From a virus, in the IMG/VR virus record IMGVR_UViG_3300028412_000004, positions 61,532 through 125,531 of that record: a DNA stretch of 64,000 nucleotides. One strand, given 5' to 3'. The notes beneath the pieces were generated by a model, which was not told the origin of the DNA, searched no databases, and was given only the letters and a program-made list of their open reading frames with translations. The position numbers and the translations under genes are program-made. Positions 5,345-62,658 of this stretch are shown here, in pieces; within the stretch, counting starts at the first letter, position 1, and every line of letters starts with the position of its first letter.

Positions 5345-6175
5345 ATGAGTGTGTTCCGCAACATTACTGTACAGCCCTCCTATGGTAAACGAGCTGTGCT
5401 GCTTACTTGGGACGTTGCGCCAGATTACCAGACCGGCGACTTCTTCATATTCAAATCCCCGGACGGTTCCGGCGGGTGGGAACTTGTAAACTCGACGCCT
5501 GTAAGTGGAACTTCCTACGAGGTCGCAGACTTCGTAATACAGAACTTAAGCACCATCCCACACTTCCGAATTCTTTTAGAGTTTGAAGGGAATAGCTACG
5601 ACAGTCCCACCGTCGGCATCTTCGACGATATGACAAGGCGGGAGTATGCTGCTATGACGCAGATCATGCGTAGGGAATACCTTGGCGTGAGCCGGGGAAA
5701 TGGTATGCGTGTTCTTCACTACACTCCCAAAACTAAAGGAGAGCTTTGCGATAGTTCGGATCCCGACACAGGTCAAATCGTAGGTACCGACTGTCCGCCA
5801 GTTGATCCGGAAGAAGAATGCTTTGGCCAGAGGTATAAGGGAGGCTTCCGCACGCCGTATTACACTTGGTGTCGCTTGGACGAGACAGGCCCTACCATAA
5901 CAATGGATTACAAGGAGGGCCTGGGTGCCGTCGACGAATTCATGTCTCGGGCAAGATTTCTAGCGTTCCCACACCCTCGTAAAAACGACCTTATTGTAAA
6001 CCCGCGTACGGATGATCGCTACGCGGTCTCACCAATCGTAAAGCCCTATAAATTCAGAGGCTTGTTCCCTATTGCTTACGACGTGCAGTTAGAATTACTT
6101 CCTCGCAGCGATGTCCGCTACAGGGTCCCTATCCCGGACCCACTACCTGAATTAACGCCGACCGTATACCTATGA
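5345..6175 (+). CDS. Head-closure / neck protein
   Basis: Synteny between adaptor and tail completion genes; C...C...CFG.xY.GG pattern seen in myophage neck proteins. Confidence 0.55.
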   Translation: MSVFRNITVQPSYGKRAVLLTWDVAPDYQTGDFFIFKSPDGSGGWELVNSTPVSGTSYEVADFVIQNLSTIPHFRILLEFEGNSYDSPTVGIFDDMTRREYAAMTQIMRREYLGVSRGNGMRVLHYTPKTKGELCDSSDPDTGQIVGTDCPPVDPEEECFGQRYKGGFRTPYYTWCRLDETGPTITMDYKEGLGAVDEFMSRARFLAFPHPRKNDLIVNPRTDDRYAVSPIVKPYKFRGLFPIAYDVQLELLPRSDVRYRVPIPDPLPELTPTVYL

Positions 6176-6813
6176 GTGCTAGATTATCAGCTAAAGAATT
6201 TTTCGGAAACTGTGTCGATAAACCTTTGGATATGGTGATGCTTCGTCGTGTATTCCTTTTACACATGCGTATCCATTGGAGCGCTGGTGAAAACCACTAC
6301 CAGGATGATGCTGATTTTTCTTGCTTAGAATATTCCGACGACGCAACGAAGTCTAAGTTGGCTGTGGAACTCACCGACATTCTAAACGAGGATGACACCG
6401 ACAACTTCCCAGGAGTATTCGTCGGATTCAAAGGTGGCTACAAACTGCGTAAGAACATGCTCGACTACTCATCTAATTTGTCTGAGGATAATTCCAAGAC
6501 TTCTAAGAATGTTCAGTGGCGGGGAACATTGGCTATATCACACATACACAAATCCTCCGACACAGCCCTCGCGATGGCTGATTCTAGTTTCGTGTTTCTT
6601 ATGGCTGTGCGCGAGACGTTGATGGATCACTTCCCTATTGGTGTAATGGATTTCGAGGGTGTAACAGACCCGCAAAAATTGGATCCTAAGAAATCCAACA
6701 GCTTTTTCAAGGTTGACCTGTTGGTGAGCGTAGAGTTTACTGCAACCGTAAATATCAGCCTCGAAGGACACAGACTTAAAACCTATGGTATAGAGTTATC
6801 GCCAACCTCCTAA
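6172..6813 (+). CDS. Tail completion / terminator protein
   Basis: 213-aa ORF immediately before the sheath gene; call rests mainly on synteny. Confidence 0.5.
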   Translation: MSARLSAKEFFGNCVDKPLDMVMLRRVFLLHMRIHWSAGENHYQDDADFSCLEYSDDATKSKLAVELTDILNEDDTDNFPGVFVGFKGGYKLRKNMLDYSSNLSEDNSKTSKNVQWRGTLAISHIHKSSDTALAMADSSFVFLMAVRETLMDHFPIGVMDFEGVTDPQKLDPKKSNSFFKVDLLVSVEFTATVNISLEGHRLKTYGIELSPTS

Positions 6814-6855
6814 TCTTCACTTGACCAAACCAAACACCACATACATCCTAATATT

Positions 6856-8937
6856 ATGAGCATCGCAAATTACGTAAGACCTCAGCTGACCATTAAGCAG
6901 CTTTTAGACCGCACTCCGGACACTGTAGGGGATCACTTGAACACCCTTTTAATTGGGGCTGAGTACTTCCTTAACATTTACGACGAGCTGGACATTCCTG
7001 GAGTGACTTTTGCAGCTGAGTCGGCAAGTCAAACTTTGGATTTTACATATTTCGACGAGCTTAAAACCACTCAAGAGTTGGATCACGGCGACTACACAGT
7101 CGACGAGGATTCTATCAGAGTGTTTGCAGAAGACTTGGAGGCTGTCGTAGCCACGTTCCTAGCGGACGGCACGACCGCAGGTAACCAATTCACAGTTCCC
7201 GGAGACTTATCTGTTCTTAATTTGACAGAAGTTGGCGCAGGCGATGTCGCTCCTTATGTGCGTGGGGCCTCTCTGGCCGGAGAGCTTGACGGACGCAATG
7301 TCTCTCTCGGAGACAGCGTGCGTATCACAGACGCTGATGGTGTTAAGCGTGTACGTACAGTTGTAGGATTCGCATCCGCGACGGTCGACGCGCAGGAACT
7401 CAATCAGATCATATTAAGCGGTCCAGCGGTCGGCGCGGGACACCTGCCTGCTGACAAAGTACTTGTTGATATCTTCCTTAAGTGGAGCGGCGAACTTACA
7501 GACTTCTCCCTCGAAGATCCAATCACAGGGGGTGTCACACTTGCCTCCGGACAATCTCTAAATGTTGTCGACAAAACAACTACTACAGTAGTTTTCTCGG
7601 ACAACGTTGGTAAGGTTTACCTAAGCTATCGTGCTCTCGAAGAGCCCGCCTCCGGTGAAGGAATCCTTGAAATAAAATCAGTTACAGACATCTTCAATCA
7701 ACTAGGGAGAATTTCCCTTTACAACGATCTGGCCTTTGCAGCCAATGAGGCTCTCAACGGCTCGCAAGGCAAACCTATCAAAGTACTTAAAGTAGCCTCC
7801 GATGACCTTGATGGCTTTCTTGAAGTTCTTCCGAAGATCGAAACCACGGATATGGTTTATGCCATTGCAGCTATCACGACCAATACGGACGCGATCGAAG
7901 CAGTTGTAAATCACGCAGAGGTAATGTCCAGTGAGGTTAACAAGAAGTTCCGCCGAGTTTACTTCGGCACTGACAGTCCTGGTGATTACCTTAAAGCTAC
8001 GAAGGACACCAGCGGATCCCCGATTCTAGTAACTATCGGAGCAGCTGGAGGTTCCGGGATTATAACACAGGTGACCACCACCAGCGCGGGAATCAACTTC
8101 CTCTCGCTTGGGTTAGTTGATGGAGACTTCCTTATGGTAGGCGGGACCAAGCATATCGTTGAGGAAGTTATCGACGCTACCACACTGCTGCTTAAGACAG
8201 CCACAGCGGCTGTAACCGACGTGAGTGCGGAGATCTGGAAGGCTGACACCCCTAGGAGTCAAATTGAATACGTAGCGGATATTTCAAAAGGTATCGCCAG
8301 CCGGCGCGCCGCTAACATATGGACCGAGGGCGGCACACGCATACTCGGCGGAGAGACTACCTCCATACCTAACAGGTTCCTCGCCGCTGAGATTGCCGGA
8401 CTTCGCTCCGCGCTGTTGCCGCAACAAGGCCTCACACGCACAGAAATCACCGCGATCACCGATGCCCCGGACATGTATATCCGTTACACCCCTACCATGC
8501 TCGACGATCTCGCTGCAGAGGGTGTGTTCATCGTAACGCAGGAAGTAGAGAACGGTGACGTATTCATCAGACACCAGCTCACCACTGACGTATCCAGTGG
8601 AAGCCTCTACTACGAGGACAGCGTCGGAACAAACATCGACAACATCTCCTATATCATTAAGGACACCCTTGATGGCTACATCGGAAGACGCAACGTCAAC
8701 AGGGCGACTTTAGTCGAGATTCGTGGCAATATGTATGAGATACTTAAGAGTCAGACTCTTGCAGATGCAGGCTTCGACAGGTCAATCGGTCCAGCCCTTA
8801 TAGGCTTTGACAATCTTGTGGTAGAAGCTGACGACGTTCTTAAGGACCGTATTAAGGTCTTTGCACGCGGGCTTATACCACTTCCACTCAACAACATCGC
8901 GGCGGCCCTTCAAGGTGCTGTAGATGTGAACATTTAA
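6856..8937 (+). CDS. Contractile tail sheath protein
   Basis: 693 aa with a sheath-type C-terminal domain (LAAEIAGL...QGLT, GVFIVTQ, IRHQLTT, NIDNISY..YIGRRN), followed by a tube-sized gene. Confidence 0.85.
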   Translation: MSIANYVRPQLTIKQLLDRTPDTVGDHLNTLLIGAEYFLNIYDELDIPGVTFAAESASQTLDFTYFDELKTTQELDHGDYTVDEDSIRVFAEDLEAVVATFLADGTTAGNQFTVPGDLSVLNLTEVGAGDVAPYVRGASLAGELDGRNVSLGDSVRITDADGVKRVRTVVGFASATVDAQELNQIILSGPAVGAGHLPADKVLVDIFLKWSGELTDFSLEDPITGGVTLASGQSLNVVDKTTTTVVFSDNVGKVYLSYRALEEPASGEGILEIKSVTDIFNQLGRISLYNDLAFAANEALNGSQGKPIKVLKVASDDLDGFLEVLPKIETTDMVYAIAAITTNTDAIEAVVNHAEVMSSEVNKKFRRVYFGTDSPGDYLKATKDTSGSPILVTIGAAGGSGIITQVTTTSAGINFLSLGLVDGDFLMVGGTKHIVEEVIDATTLLLKTATAAVTDVSAEIWKADTPRSQIEYVADISKGIASRRAANIWTEGGTRILGGETTSIPNRFLAAEIAGLRSALLPQQGLTRTEITAITDAPDMYIRYTPTMLDDLAAEGVFIVTQEVENGDVFIRHQLTTDVSSGSLYYEDSVGTNIDNISYIIKDTLDGYIGRRNVNRATLVEIRGNMYEILKSQTLADAGFDRSIGPALIGFDNLVVEADDVLKDRIKVFARGLIPLPLNNIAAALQGAVDVNI

Positions 8938-57180: not shown

Positions 57181-59623
57181 ATGAATGAAATGAAATTTAA
57201 TGTCCCTGTGTTGGACGAGTCTGCTATATCAGCAGAGCTTAAGAAAATGCAAACTTCTGGAGAAGCAGAAGTTGTGGAGAGTCCTGATGAGAACTCTCCT
57301 AAGAACGTCAGAAAGACTCGTCGCTACGGTAACCGGCTTTACGTGGCCGGCGAGGGGTCCAGAGATGCCCGCGTCATGTTAATAGCTACTTCACTCCTTG
57401 AGGAGGAGGCTGTTGAAGAACGTACGTTGACTTACGGCAAGTCCATTAAAGAGCAGGCGCGTTACCTAAAAGGCCCTACAGGTGCAATCCTGTCAGACCT
57501 TATGGGTGCGCACGGACTGGAGCTTAAGCATTGCTACTACACTGCCTTGTGTAAGTGGCTCCTCCCCCGACCCAACCGTCTTAAACCTAAAAAAGAAGAT
57601 CTAGCCTGGGGACGCGAAGCTCTTATAAATGAGATACGGGAAATTAACCCGGATGTCATTATATGTTTCGGCAAACCTGTGTTTGACCTGTTGACCGGTC
57701 TCAAACTTAAAATGAGTGACGTAGCCGGCGCGTGGTTTAATCTAGACTTACCAAAGTCAATCGAGCACCAGGTTATGCAGGAGGTTGAGGTTCCTACAAC
57801 GGAGTACGATGAGAACAATAATGCTATACTAGTTAAGGAGATGCAGATGGTTACCACCAGCGTCACTAAACTTAAAAGGCTTAATGCGCGAGTTTACCCG
57901 ATGGAGGATATCACCAAACTGCTGACCAAACCGGAGACTGTTCTTAAGTTCAAAAAGGACTTCATCGAGGTTAAACGTACTCTGGATAAAGTAGACGGTA
58001 TACACGTTGATGAGTATGAGCAGAAGTATGAGGTTATCCGCGATGTTGACGCCTTGCAGGAGTTGATAGCCCGCTTAGCGCGGGATAATAGAACAATCTT
58101 GTCGGTAGACTGTGAATGGCATGGTAATACGCCGATCGACGGTAAGCTCAGATCTTTACAGATCGCGTGGGCTCCTGGAGAGGCAGCTTACATCCGGTTT
58201 ATGGATGATGCGCTCAACTACACCTTCGATGTTCCTTATAAAGTAGCAGGGGCTGTTTTAGGACAACATCTAGATAATGAGGATGTGAGATACGTCGGTC
58301 ATCATCTGGCGGCCGATTTACCTTGGATGTACTACACACTCGGACTCAACTGGTATAAGAAAGCATTCTTAGACACAGAGTTTGCAGAGCAGTGCGTAGA
58401 TGAGCACCAGGAGCTTGGACTAGAACGTCTTGGTATGCATTACACAGATCTCGGGCGTTACGACATCGATCTAACACTATGGGTTAAGAAGAATGCACAC
58501 CTCGTCAAAGATGGTTACGGGTTCATACCCGACGAGATTCTTATACCTTACGCCACTAAAGACGTTGATGTTTGTATAAGGGCTTACCCGCAGATTCTTA
58601 AAAAGATGAGGCAGGATCCTGGTGACAGATTGTTGGCATACTACTACAATATATTCCACCCTTTCGTCACAGATGTGTTCACAAACTTCGCTATAAACGG
58701 ACTTCCTATGGATATCCAGAGGATGGACGAGTTACGCGATGTTTTCCATTATGCTCGTAAAGAAATGAGTAAGGACTTCCGAGAGAAGATGGCTGCCGAG
58801 AGTAATAAAATGCTTGAGGAATATCTTAAGGAAGTAACTGAGCTGGAGGAGCCTGAGCTAACTGTGATGGATATGGAGGAGCGTATTATGAGTGGAGATC
58901 CTGACGCCGCATTCTCTATATTTAAAGAGGCTGTGGGTGTACAGAAATTGAAAGATGCGCAGCCGTTCTACGATCACTTTGTCGTGGCAGCTGATTTCAA
59001 TATAAGATCTCCGGATCAGATGCGTAGGTGGTTGTTTAAGGTTAAAGGTTACACGCCTATCAAATCTACCAACAATAAAGAAAAGGGATTCCCGTCTATG
59101 CCTTGGGAGAAGGTTGCGGACTTGCCGGAGGATCGTCGTAAGGATTATAAACCATCCACCGACAAGCAGTCTTTAGAGATTCTCAAAGCACAACACCAAG
59201 ACCCGACACTAGACTATCTACTTAAGCTTAATGCTGTGGGAAACCTGTGTAAGGCTTTCCTAAAAGAGGCTGATGTAGATGAAGAAGGAGAGACCATCAG
59301 AGAGAATGGCCTTCACTTCTGGTTAGCGTCCGATGGTAAGGTTCATGGTCAGACGAGTACGACGGAAACGGGTCGTCCAAGAAGTTGGAAGCCAAATACG
59401 TTAAACTGGCCAGGCTGGATCAACGATAAGATAGCCACCGGAGTCGGGGATATTATGATTAAGAGACGTGAACAGGGGTGTCTCCCAACACGGTTTAACC
59501 ACTACCTCAGTAAGGACGGGGAAAAGTTCGAAGCTAAGATACCTAGCATTCGTTCCTGCGTTAAAGCGCCGGACGGTTGGTGTCTCGTGGAGAGTGATTA
59601 TCAGACCGCAGAAATACGAGGGT
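57181..59623 (+). CDS. polA: Family A DNA polymerase exon 1 (UDG-like domain, 3'-5' exonuclease, thumb, motif A)
   Basis: GEGSRDARVM..., SVDCEW, GHHLAAD, YATKD, TETGRPRS and VESDYQTAEIRG, which stops mid motif A. Confidence 0.9.
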
Positions 59624-61135
59624 GATTTTGTCGTTGACAAACTACCCAATTTAAAGAAAATTAATACTATGGAATTAGAGAAGAAACAATGTCAGTGCTG
59701 CAGTAACACGTTCGTCCCTAAAAGACGCACGCGTCGCTACTGTTATGATTGCGATGTTAAAACTCGCGAGAAAGCAGCACGTGCTTCTAAGGTGAAAACT
59801 AAGAAGTGTGTACATTGCTCTTCAGAGTTTTCAACGACTCGAGCTACTCAGAAGTTCTGCTCAAAATCTTGCACTGTAAGCTTCCATACAAGGAGGTCTT
59901 TCGCAGACAAGAAGATACTTACTGAGTGCGTCGAGTGTGGGACAGAGTTCGTCCCTATAAGTAAAACAAATAAAACTTGCTCGACTAAGTGTTCAAGAGC
60001 GAGGTCATACAAAAGGAGCAAGGAAGTGAAAGTACCTAAACCTTGTGTTGTTTGTGCAACTGAGTTCCTCCCAAGGCGTGTACTAGACGTATGCTGCTCT
60101 AAGGAGTGTTCCAACAAGCGAGCACGCAAGGCTCAGGACAAGGAGATCACGTGTATAGACTGTGAGGACGTTTTTACACATAGCACTACTGGGACGCCAA
60201 AGAGGTGTCCCAGCTGTAGAGTTAAACCTAAGATGATGTCTCTCAAACCCTGCGAAGGGTGTGGGAAGCATTTCAAACACAACCGCACCGACTACACCCG
60301 GTTCTGCAGTTTAACCTGCGCTACCTTAGGTATACATGCGGAGGGTCTAGCGAACGGTCTAAACAAGGATGTGATACAGGGTATAATGGTAGAGTTCATT
60401 AAGAACGCCAGACACACACCCACGATCGAAGAAGCTTCTGAAGCTGCCGGCGTTGGAGAGAACTACCACTCCCAGGTTTTAAATCTGACCGTGGAAGATC
60501 TGTTCGAGTTAGCAGGGAGAAAGAACAAGAGCCTGTTTCCTAGTAAGTTCGAAGAGCGGGTATACTACAGCATGCTGGATCTTGGGTTTACGAATACTGA
60601 CATCAATCGTCAGAAGTCTTACCCAGGTTTAAAAGGCCCGTCGGGAAGATGGCCTGTTAGATTCGACTTCTATATTAATAGTTTGAACCTCCTGGTCGAA
60701 GCCGACGGGGAGCAACACACCATGGACAAACATCTAATGTTTGACTGTGAAAGCACAAAAGCCTGCGACGCGTTGAAAGACGCGTATGCCGATGAGCACG
60801 GTATCAAGCTGGTTAGAATTCCATACCACCCCACATTTAAGGGTGTCTTTAAATTGGTGAGTCAACTACTCAGCCCCTATATACAGCAATGAATATAGCA
60901 AAGTTCTTTAATTCAGGGGACACCTCCTCGGAGGCAATCCTGAGCCAAGCCGCGGACAATCATGTCCCGGAAGGTGCAACGACTATCCCCGTCGGGGGAG
61001 TAGAGCTAAGCGGCTCGAAATGGGAACCACCCCACGTGGGTGAAGATATAGTCTGGTCTGCAAATATAATACATAAATTGCAGCAGGTGCTTACAGGCAC
61101 CGGGCTTGGGTTTGCGCCCCAAGTTGAACATAACG
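59624..61135 (+). mobile_element. Group I self-splicing intron (IA-like) in polA motif A
   Basis: Core elements P AATTCAGGGGA (60910), Q GCAATCCTGAGC (60934), R GTGCAACGACTA (60974) and S AAGATATAGTCT (61043); P3 GTTCTT/GGGAAC; two hairpins between P7 and P3'; P8 and P9 hairpins. Exon 1 ends in T and the intron ends in G; splicing gives EIRG-L-AFISGD. Confidence 0.92.
59669..60892 (+). CDS. Intron-encoded endonuclease: six zinc ribbons, HTH-like segment, Vsr/DUF559-like nuclease domain
   Basis: Six CxxC...Cxx(x)C repeats and RFDFYINSLNLLVEADGEQH...KLVRIPY. ATG at 59669 has an A-rich leader. Confidence 0.8.
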   Translation: MELEKKQCQCCSNTFVPKRRTRRYCYDCDVKTREKAARASKVKTKKCVHCSSEFSTTRATQKFCSKSCTVSFHTRRSFADKKILTECVECGTEFVPISKTNKTCSTKCSRARSYKRSKEVKVPKPCVVCATEFLPRRVLDVCCSKECSNKRARKAQDKEITCIDCEDVFTHSTTGTPKRCPSCRVKPKMMSLKPCEGCGKHFKHNRTDYTRFCSLTCATLGIHAEGLANGLNKDVIQGIMVEFIKNARHTPTIEEASEAAGVGENYHSQVLNLTVEDLFELAGRKNKSLFPSKFEERVYYSMLDLGFTNTDINRQKSYPGLKGPSGRWPVRFDFYINSLNLLVEADGEQHTMDKHLMFDCESTKACDALKDAYADEHGIKLVRIPYHPTFKGVFKLVSQLLSPYIQQ

Positions 61136-62658
61136 TAGCCTTCATCTCAGGAGATGAAGACCTAATTGACCTGGTGACGAAGCCAGATCCTTGTTTTGTA
61201 AAAGTCAAACCCAGCGCCGCCCCGGAAGACGACGCTGTGTGTCGGGTGAAATATCCGAAATACTTGGTAAACTACTCATTCGAAGAAGAAGCTTCTAAGT
61301 TCCTGATGGCTTACGGTAAAGAGGGTGAATTGGTTAAGACATTCACTGAAGAAGACCTACAACGCAATGAGGATGGAACGTGGGCCCATTACAAGCATGA
61401 CCTGCATTGGTCTCTGGCTGAGATGGTGCATAAGGTTCCTCGTGAGAAGCTTCACAACAAGCGAGATAGAGGTGCGGCGAAGGTAGGGAACTTTTCGTGT
61501 TTTCCTGCTCACACCCGTATAACCACTAATAAAGGAGAAAAAGATATTGTTAATGTAACGCTTGTCGATCTCCTGTGGGACGGTCTAGCGTGGGTTTCTC
61601 ACGAAGGTGTACAATATCAAGGAGAACGATATACAATCGAGTATGCAGGCTTTCGAGCCACACCCGACCACGTTGTGTGGCTTGAAGATGGGCGAGAGTC
61701 TTGCTTTGGTGATGCCGCTCTTGAAGACGCGGACATCGCTCGCAGCCACTCGGGTTGCGTGGTGTTACAACAACGACACACAAGCTCGAGTCAGGAGGAT
61801 CAAATTGAGCATCAACGCCAGTTATACAAGCGTGTTGATGAAGAAGGGTCTGTTGGAATAAGAGCTCGTAGCGCGTTCAAGCACTTCAAACTGAAGGTGG
61901 AAAAAGTCTACGACATCATCAACGCCGGCCCTCGGCACCGCTTCACCGCCGAAGGATATCTAGTATCCAACAGTGCATATGGGGCCGTCGGCGCGACGCT
62001 AGAGAGAAAGATCGAATCCGACACCGGAGTCAAACCAGCCGAAGGGACTGGAGAGGCTCTACTACAGGCCTTGGCAGAACGTCAACCTAGAGCCACCGCA
62101 TACTTACTGTCTATGGAAGATATTCCGGAGACCCCAGGTTACATTACAGCAGCATCAGGACGCACACGCCACTTCCACTTACACGACCAAAAGTTGTATG
62201 GGATTAAATCCCGCACGCACCAAGGTATGTTGTCGGCTATGGGACGCGAGTGCAGAAATTTCCCTATGCAAGAGAGTGTTGCTTCTACAGCAGCGCGCGC
62301 TGGCGTATGGCTTCTGGAGTTTGGTCGCAAGAACGGATTACAGGGAAGTCCTATGACAATCCTGTATGACGCCGTAGTAACCAACTGCCCGGAAGAAGAA
62401 AGAGAGATATGGAGCAAAGCACACGACGTGTTCATGTTCCTAAAGAATGGTTGGAGCTACCACGGACGAATATTGACATACCCGATCGACACAGAGTTGA
62501 ATCAGGCATGGTCATGGAAACCCAGTAAGGAAAGGCTGGCCCAACTACAAGACCCTAACTTCAAACCCACGCCCGAAAGGTTTCAACACCTGCTGAAAGG
62601 GCTGGACGCAATGATAGAAGTATACAGCGCGGCGCCAAATCTGGCACTGCGTGACTAA
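61136..62658 (+). CDS. polA: Family A DNA polymerase exon 2 (motifs B and C) with mini-intein
   Basis: AFISGD, DLH, AKVGNFS|SAYG, RECRNFPMQESVA and ILYDAV (motif C). Confidence 0.9.
61498..61971 (+). mobile_element. Mini-intein (158 aa) in PolA motif B
   Basis: CFPAHT...ATPDH...VYDIINAGPRHRFTAEGYLVSN, +1 Ser; no endonuclease motifs. Confidence 0.9.

Follow-up and report, generated by a model that had tools for sequence, protein, structure and literature searches.

The DNA analysed in this study (hereafter the window) is a stretch of 64,000 nucleotides that forms the 3' half of the IMG/VR virus record IMGVR_UViG_3300028412_000004, a 125.5-kb sequence estimated to be 66% complete, and near-identical DNA is present in several lake-water metagenomes. 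The window encodes a family A DNA polymerase gene (polA) that is divided into two exons by a candidate group I intron, and the intron in turn carries an open reading frame (ORF) for a putative homing endonuclease. The upstream exon matches the Pfam families UDG, DNA_pol_A_exo1 and DNA_pol_A as well as PHROG 17 (DNA polymerase). A tblastn search of isolated phages with exon 1 returned T5-like and Vibrio phages as the closest relatives, with approximately 24% identity in the polymerase. Because even the nearest isolated phages are this distant, the phage appears, on its sequence, to represent an uncultured lineage.

Exon 1 ends within motif A of the polymerase, where ...ESDYQTAEIRG is followed by the first base of a leucine codon, and the unspliced polA ORF (57181-59625) stops immediately past this peptide (T|GA). 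Joining T59623 to T61136 in silico gives CLVESDYQTAEIRGLAFISGDEDLIDLVT, in which the GGGT|TAGCC junction reads DYQTAEIRG-L-AFISGDEDL. The conceptual spliced product is collinear with the uninterrupted motif A of related polymerases (EADYQTAEMRGLAYISGDAELI in the related locus L005 and ESDYSAAESFALAIISGDADLM in L008), in agreement with the junction proposed in an initial annotation of this DNA. The intron defined in this way begins with G59624 and ends with G61135 (omega-G). Contigs of four further lake metagenomes contain the intron and cross both splice sites.

A search of the window against Rfam returned a single match, to RF00028, at positions 60837-61070. The match extends over the full length of the model and scores 60.7 bits (E 6.5e-13), above the gathering score of 50. 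The entire ribozyme is located at the 3' end of the intron, 1.25 kb downstream of the 5' splice site, and measures 263 nt from the guide nucleotide G60873 to omega-G. The 3' segments of five introns were aligned on a structure extending from P2 to P9.2 and including the P3/P7 pseudoknot. Analysis of the 63 pairs in this structure demonstrated standard pairs in 95.9% of the cells and changes on both sides in 32 pairs. None of 500 shuffles scored as well, and when the structure was slid by 1-3 columns, no more than 13 pairs had changes on both sides. Compensatory changes were found in five of the six P2 pairs. The placement of P7.1 and P7.2 between P7 and the 3' strand of P3 assigns the intron to subgroup IA, the usual type in phages, of which these two helices are the hallmark. 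The initial annotation had placed a group I intron within motif A of polA, its ribozyme core occupying the last ~265 nt and including a P2 hairpin of CTATAT/ATATAG, and had named a covariance search as a check. The Rfam score, the restored frame and the core covariation uphold this placement, and the coordinates of P2 agree.

Table 1 Features of the polA gene, its intron and the endonuclease gene, with positions numbered from the first nucleotide of the window
Feature	Position	Strand	Description
polA exon 1	57181..59623	+	UDG-like domain, 3'-5' exonuclease and N-terminal part of family A polymerase
P1 5' strand	59620..59623	+	Exon GGGU; U59623 in a wobble pair with G60873
Group I intron, subgroup IA	59624..61135	+	1512 nt; RF00028 match, restored frame, covarying helices P1-P9.2
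P1a	59633..59638 with 60861-60866	+	GUUGAC with GUCAAC; direct reading, weakly supported
Sigma-70-like motif, possible internal promoter	59634..59661	+	TTGACA-16-GAAAAT in the P1 5' strand, 7 nt before ATG
P1b 5' strand	59646..59656	+	CCAAUUUAAAG; long-range helix shutting the ORF-bearing loop; non-coding leader
Possible P1c	59668..59676 with 60817-60825	+	UAUGGAAUU, including the start codon, pairs with AAUUCCAUA; 9-bp duplex
Putative homing endonuclease gene	59669..60892	+	407 aa, between 5' splice site and guide
P1b 3' strand	60847..60857	+	CUUUAAAUUGG; within V-F-K-L-V codons
Internal guide sequence, P1 3' strand	60873..60876	+	GCCC, covarying with the exon
P2 hairpin	60877..60898	+	CTATAT 60877-82 with ATATAG 60893-98; endonuclease stop TGA 60890-92 in the loop
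Core and periphery as a whole	60903..61123	+	Covariation in five introns
P3	60903-08 with 61022-27	+	
P4	60913-18 with 60938-43	+	
P5	60923-26 with 60931-34	+	
P6	60944-45 with 60974-75	+	
P6a	60950-52 with 60968-70	+	
P7	60981-85 with 61049-53	+	
P7.1	60986-89 with 60996-99	+	Compensatory changes
P7.2	61003-07 with 61012-16	+	Compensatory changes
P8	61028-32 with 61038-42	+	
P9	61058-63 with 61078-83	+	
P9.1	61086-90 with 61097-101	+	
P9.2	61105-10 with 61118-23	+	
omega-G	61135	+	Last intron nucleotide; G in 5/5 aligned introns
polA exon 2	61136..62658	+	Remainder of motif A to C-terminus; Pfam DNA_pol_A; collinear with L005

Comparison of related introns bears on how the distant 5' splice site meets the ribozyme. 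Exon and guide read GGGU/GCCC in the window and in the loci L003, L004 and L008, GCGU/GCGC in L002 (whose exon encodes VA in place of RG), UGGU/GCCA in L005 and GGUGAU/GUCACC in the recA intron of phage 0305phi8-36. Four different exon/guide combinations therefore keep the P1 pairing, and we take the true P1 to be this long-range pairing of exon and guide. The ORF had been described as following the 5' splice site and preceding the guide GCCC, apparently in the P1 loop, with the guide G paired to exon U59623 and the last ORF codons overlapping the guide and P2. The coordinates agree with each of these points, the stop codon sits in the P2 loop, and both P1 and the helix P1b covary.

P1b, which is predicted to shut the ORF-bearing loop, is 11-14 bp long (12-14 bp in L002, L003 and L004). 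Among the window and these three loci, changes on both strands occur at four positions, one of which appears as U-A, A-U and C-G. When the 5' and 3' segments were paired by RNAduplex, z was -5 to -9 in five loci, with 0/300 shuffles as good, and the result was weaker in L004 (z -2.4, 9/300 shuffles as good). L005 and L008 have unrelated sequence at the place of P1b, yet closing helices of 9-11 bp form there. The shorter helix P1a is invariant in L002 and L003 and has one compensatory change in L008 (GUAGAC/GUCUA). AUG pairings comparable to P1c are found in L003, L005 and L008, with 3' partners at non-homologous positions. Sequestration of the start codon was rejected as a conserved feature and is kept as a hypothesis only: four of the six loci have it, their partners are non-homologous, and it is not significant alone.

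The endonuclease gene has five full-length homologues of 50-60% identity, each located between exon 1 and exon 2 of a UDG-PolA gene. Its product is laid out as six C4 zinc modules (residues ~8-217), a helical linker resembling a helix-turn-helix (HTH; ~233-305) and a Vsr/EDxHD-like nuclease domain (~290-400). In the six homologues, the CxxC...Cxx(x)C modules keep every one of their 24 cysteines; E295, E296, R331, D333, E344, D346, H350, D367, K370 and R383 are also invariant, and F-C-S is found in modules 2 and 6. The AlphaFold2 (AF2) model, with a mean pLDDT of 75.8 and values of ~80-90 over residues 240-400, predicts that most modules form a hairpin-plus-helix unit, that the linker is helical and that the C-terminal domain is of alpha/beta type. 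A C4 finger of the FCS or treble-clef type would have its CxxC knuckle on a beta-hairpin and its other Cys pair where the helix begins, often with an FCS motif. Foldseek matched the C-terminal domain to Vsr (1cw0, probability 0.99; 1vsr, probability 0.98) and to the catalytic domain of I-Bth0305I (3r3p, probability 0.98, TM 0.64). The lowest Foldseek E-values were obtained for polydactyl C2H2 arrays at TM 0.1-0.2, and these matches therefore indicate no more than a series of small zinc units at the N-terminus.

Sequence searches with the endonuclease were far less informative than the predicted fold. The sole Pfam match was DUF7255 (18.1 bits, under the cut-off of 27); neither DUF559 nor Vsr (PF04480, PF03852) was matched above the gathering score, zf-FCS was not matched in Pfam, and an NCBIfam search returned nothing. 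In one relative, P0041, the DUF559 score was 20.2 against the 20.6 required. PHROGs 9084 ('homing endonuclease'), 559 and 1271 ('HNH endonuclease') do match the protein. Its sole sequence match in the PDB was marginal (the FCS finger of PHC1, 2l8e, E 0.087), and both the phmmer and the profile searches of the PDB missed 3R3P and Vsr. An hhalign comparison with I-Bth0305I aligned only a 14-column HTH-like segment, TIEEASEAAGVGEN against SIRELAKELGIGKD. By eye, the motifs FEERVY/PERRVK, RFDFY/NVDFY, VEADGEQH/IEVNGVYWH and D..K...G.K/R.V.I can be aligned between the two proteins. The endonuclease is thus a likely, not a proven, member of the EDxHD or Vsr-like family (E296, D333, E344/D346, H350 and D367), and the assignment rests on the predicted fold together with the by-eye motifs because hhalign gave no significant similarity. 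The earlier description of six zinc repeats ahead of a Vsr/DUF559-like domain accordingly holds for the 24 invariant cysteines and the predicted Vsr-like fold, but finds no Pfam match for DUF559.

To our knowledge, the EDxHD homing endonuclease family is little studied and has one characterised member. This member, I-Bth0305I, is an active homing endonuclease (PMC3239194) and the prototype of the family (PMC2677866, PMC3239194; PDB 3R3P). Its EDxHD motif comprises E170, D196, N208, H213 and D222, together with an acidic residue at the position of Vsr Phe62. Dassa et al. (2009) put Vsr-like ORFs in the P1 loop of recA introns (PMC2677866), whereas the I-Bth0305I ORF was said by Taylor et al. 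(2011) to interrupt P5 (PMC3239194). In the record of phage 0305phi8-36 (NC_009760, our L216), the I-Bth0305I gene, which is encoded on the minus strand, occupies 162049 to 161249, and the Rfam core match occupies 161274 to 161026. The ORF is therefore 5' of the entire Rfam core and overlaps the guide GUCACC and P2, which favours P1 over P5 and makes the layout of the window that of the family prototype.

The window intron and that of 0305phi8-36 are both phage group I introns in a DNA-metabolism gene with a Vsr-like ORF in the P1 loop, both endonucleases end at the same RNA elements (...THISNGM and stop in 0305phi8-36; ...APLISNGxSKAL and stop in the window family), and in both a long-range duplex joins the intron 5' end to the region ahead of the guide. 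They differ in host site, which is recA (UvsX-like) in 0305phi8-36 and polA motif A in the window. The proteins differ as well: I-Bth0305I has 266 aa with two NUMOD/HTH motifs, whereas the window protein has 407 aa with six C4 zinc modules and one HTH-like segment, one residue fewer from the E-x-D strand to the His and a longer loop before the last Asp. The E. coli Vsr protein (1CW0, 1VSR) is the top structural match of the C-terminal domain and has the same Asp/His/Asp active-site logic, but it is a mismatch-repair nickase that lacks an N-terminal zinc array and has a structural zinc site inside its nuclease domain.

Other known introns share either the host gene or the geometry. The polA introns of SPO1 (I-HmuI), Bastille (I-BasI) and a T7-like phage (PMC3984707, PMC3239194) are likewise IA-type, carry a homing endonuclease gene (HEG) and interrupt a conserved block of a family A DNA polymerase, but they encode HNH nicking nucleases and occupy other insertion sites. 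P1 is a listed HEG site in nuclear rDNA introns (PMC3679873, PMC8395846), and those of Physarum (Ppo.L1925, I-PpoI) and of myxomycetes (S1389) resemble the window intron in having a sense-orientation HEG that extends P1. They differ in their type (IC1/IE), in having rRNA genes as hosts, in encoding His-Cys box enzymes and in being expressed in eukaryotes. The initial annotation had considered the insertion geometry uncommon, and this view is weakened by the P1 loop of Dassa et al., by 0305phi8-36, by the P1 HEGs of nuclear rDNA and by the loci L005, L008 and L012.

Our interpretation, which we hold with considerable confidence, is that motif A of polA in this uncultured lake-water phage is interrupted by a mobile group I intron of subgroup IA, whose P1 loop contains the endonuclease ORF. 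Several observations weigh against it. We infer splicing and the junction itself from the sequence. P1 with the exon has only 4 bp, P1a is broken in L004 (4/6 pairs), the start-codon pairing is missing in L002 and L004, and inspection revealed no convincing P10, the longest pairing being 3 bp. The hhalign probability for the nuclease domain against I-Bth0305I was 0.6%, which is not significant. An intron-less or ORF-less joint was not seen in the metagenome contigs aligned to the window, and mobility of the intron is thus a deduction because an intron-less allele of the phage was not seen.

Two alternatives dispute the intron as we have drawn it. The 5' splice site, or a decoy of it, could be a pseudo-exon GGGU at 60842-60845, with the ORF then lying upstream of the intron. 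This is where cmscan places the P1 of Rfam, a local hairpin (GGGTGTCTT.../CAGCCCC, 60841-60877) in which the GGGU copy pairs with the guide, and the local GGGUG duplicates the real junction GGGU|G. The local pairing is not conserved, however, and we rejected it because its GGT is a Gly codon with a variable third base (GGA in L002, GGC in L004). The guide of L002 covaries instead with the distant exon, and splicing at the pseudo-exon would put the ORF out of frame with exon 2 and leave polA without exon 1. We regard this alternative as extremely unlikely. Equally hard to credit is a split polA with a dead relic ribozyme, in which separate translation of the C-terminal half would begin at the ATG at 60889. 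This ATG overlaps the endonuclease stop (ATGA) and lies in a 95-codon frame that crosses the core and shares the reading frame of exon 2; no stop interrupts it from 60853 into exon 2, and a gene caller made a similar call next to P0006. The open frame (60853-61135) is missing in L002, L003, L005 and L008, though, and is probably due to chance because these four relatives do not keep it. Conservation moreover falls on RNA pairs and not on codons, as the 32 compensated pairs indicate, and the break would lie within motif A.

A further alternative accepts splicing and disputes the function of the ORF, which would no longer encode a homing nuclease and would act as a maturase that binds RNA or as a DNA-binding protein that has been domesticated. 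In some eukaryotic proteins, zinc fingers of the FCS type bind RNA, the intron-less allele was not found in metagenome contigs, and the endonuclease copy of L008 is degenerate. We nevertheless consider loss of the nuclease function improbable: E296, D333, E344, D346, H350 and D367 are invariant across homologues of only 50-60% identity, and the related I-Bth0305I is an active homing endonuclease (PMC3239194).

For the preferred reading, a homing intron with its endonuclease gene in P1, the following mechanism is proposed. The pre-mRNA would self-splice with guanosine and restore DYQTAEIRGLAFISGD. The long-range helices that extend P1 shut the ~1.2-kb loop containing the endonuclease gene. The endonuclease would bind DNA via its six zinc modules and the HTH-like linker and cut intron-less polA near the insertion site during co-infection, and repair would copy the intron in. 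The self-splicing and homing steps follow what is well established for group I introns and for I-Bth0305I. With its stop codon in the P2 loop, the ORF shares its final codons with the 3' strands of the P1 extension, of the guide and of P2. Owing to the overlap with the guide and P2, translation of the ORF and folding of the ribozyme should be mutually exclusive on any one RNA, and ribosomes completing the ORF would have to unwind P1 and P2. In relatives the end of the ORF reaches into P3/J3-4. ORFs that overlap core sequences have been described as tightly controlled (Hausner et al. 2014; PMC3984707).

The timing of endonuclease expression may depend on pairing of the start region or on an internal promoter. 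The sigma-70-like motif has 10/12 matches, and such sites are common (11 found against 6.5 expected). L002-L004 keep both hexamers and their spacing, with the consensus TTGACA-16-GA(A/C)AAT located 5-7 nt before the ATG, and this conservation is confounded by the P1a/P1b pairing. TTGACA-16-GAnAAT may drive a leaderless endonuclease mRNA that is unable to form the loop-closing helices.

If this interpretation is correct, the intron is a clear case of a group I ribozyme that tolerates a 1.2-kb gene in P1, with covarying long-range helices bringing the distant 5' splice site to the guide, and the overlap of the ORF with the guide and P2 predicts a conflict between translation and splicing. For the EDxHD family, polA motif A would be a new target and the six tandem zinc modules a new DNA-binding architecture. 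The intron is otherwise an ordinary phage mobile element.

The zinc array has relatives well beyond this locus. A profile search of 1.84 billion cluster representatives returned 12,625 proteins at E<=1e-3, of which 778 had E<=1e-10. Among the matches listed, and as judged from the part of the profile matched, many relatives have one to five zinc modules ahead of the nuclease, and in some the array is joined to other nucleases, such as an HNH_3 or TnsA-like domain. The array therefore appears to be a widespread, promiscuous module, because many metagenome proteins carry it and do so on several nuclease types. In the literature searched, we found no publication describing a Vsr-like homing endonuclease with tandem zinc modules. 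The initial view of the nuclease architecture as uncommon consequently stands in that the protein lies outside Pfam and NCBIfam and no published description was found, but not in that such proteins are abundant in metagenomes and partly represented in PHROGs. No further close relatives emerged when metagenomes were scanned with the endonuclease profile, and a scan of IMG/VR with DNA patterns gave only random matches to the 14-mer TTTGTCGTTGACAA and none to the core pattern. A more speculative and rather unlikely idea is that the six-module array is a variable-length, modular DNA-reading head on a Vsr-like cleavage domain, which would in effect make the protein a naturally occurring polydactyl zinc-finger nuclease. 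If modules were gained, lost or exchanged, this could then explain retargeting between TTETG|R, a second polA site, and motif A, because relatives have one to six or more modules and other nucleases. Nuclease engineers might take interest if it is true that the modules read DNA modularly.

Among the loci fetched via the nuclease domain, the order of ORF followed by whole core was also found in L005, in L008 and twice in L012, and most other relatives' loci had no intron nearby. L005 (3788-5133) and L008 (3819-4507) contain related introns, with the endonuclease gene 5' of the core, at TTETG|R, which lies upstream of motif A. The core of L008 closely resembles that of the window and its endonuclease gene is degenerate, with a short ORF and, in a different frame, the remains of the nuclease; this combination suggests that the intron-endonuclease unit moved between polA sites and that the endonuclease then decayed. 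L012 (3242-6497) has two tandem units in a host gene that by eye is tape-measure-like; in each unit, an ORF for an endonuclease with zinc modules and a Vsr-like domain precedes a complete group I core. L005 contains another group I intron in polA (5995-6987, RECRNFP|MQESV) with an HNH-type ORF 3' of the core. A lake-metagenome contig (run X5) matches only a short piece of the core, window 60910-60950, with unlike flanks, and is probably a related intron in another phage.

Several other features were observed near these genes. At the locus of P0006, an IS605 OrfB/TnpB-like gene lies directly upstream of the related UDG-PolA gene. A 26-nt near-palindrome, AGCCTTCATCTCAGGAGATGAAGACC (window 61137-61162), is located at the start of exon 2 beside the insertion site and is not conserved in L002 or L003. 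Further downstream, a candidate mini-intein of 158 aa (window 61498-61971) splits polA motif B as KVGNFS | C...TPDH...VYDIINAGPRHRFTAEGYLVSN | SAYG. PDB and NCBIfam sequence searches with it were blank, and a two-sequence AF2 model reached a pLDDT of 38. It has 38% identity with L008 5099-5530 and is absent from L005 (NFSSSYGG). With the intron and this candidate mini-intein, the polymerase gene would have two different self-splicing elements.

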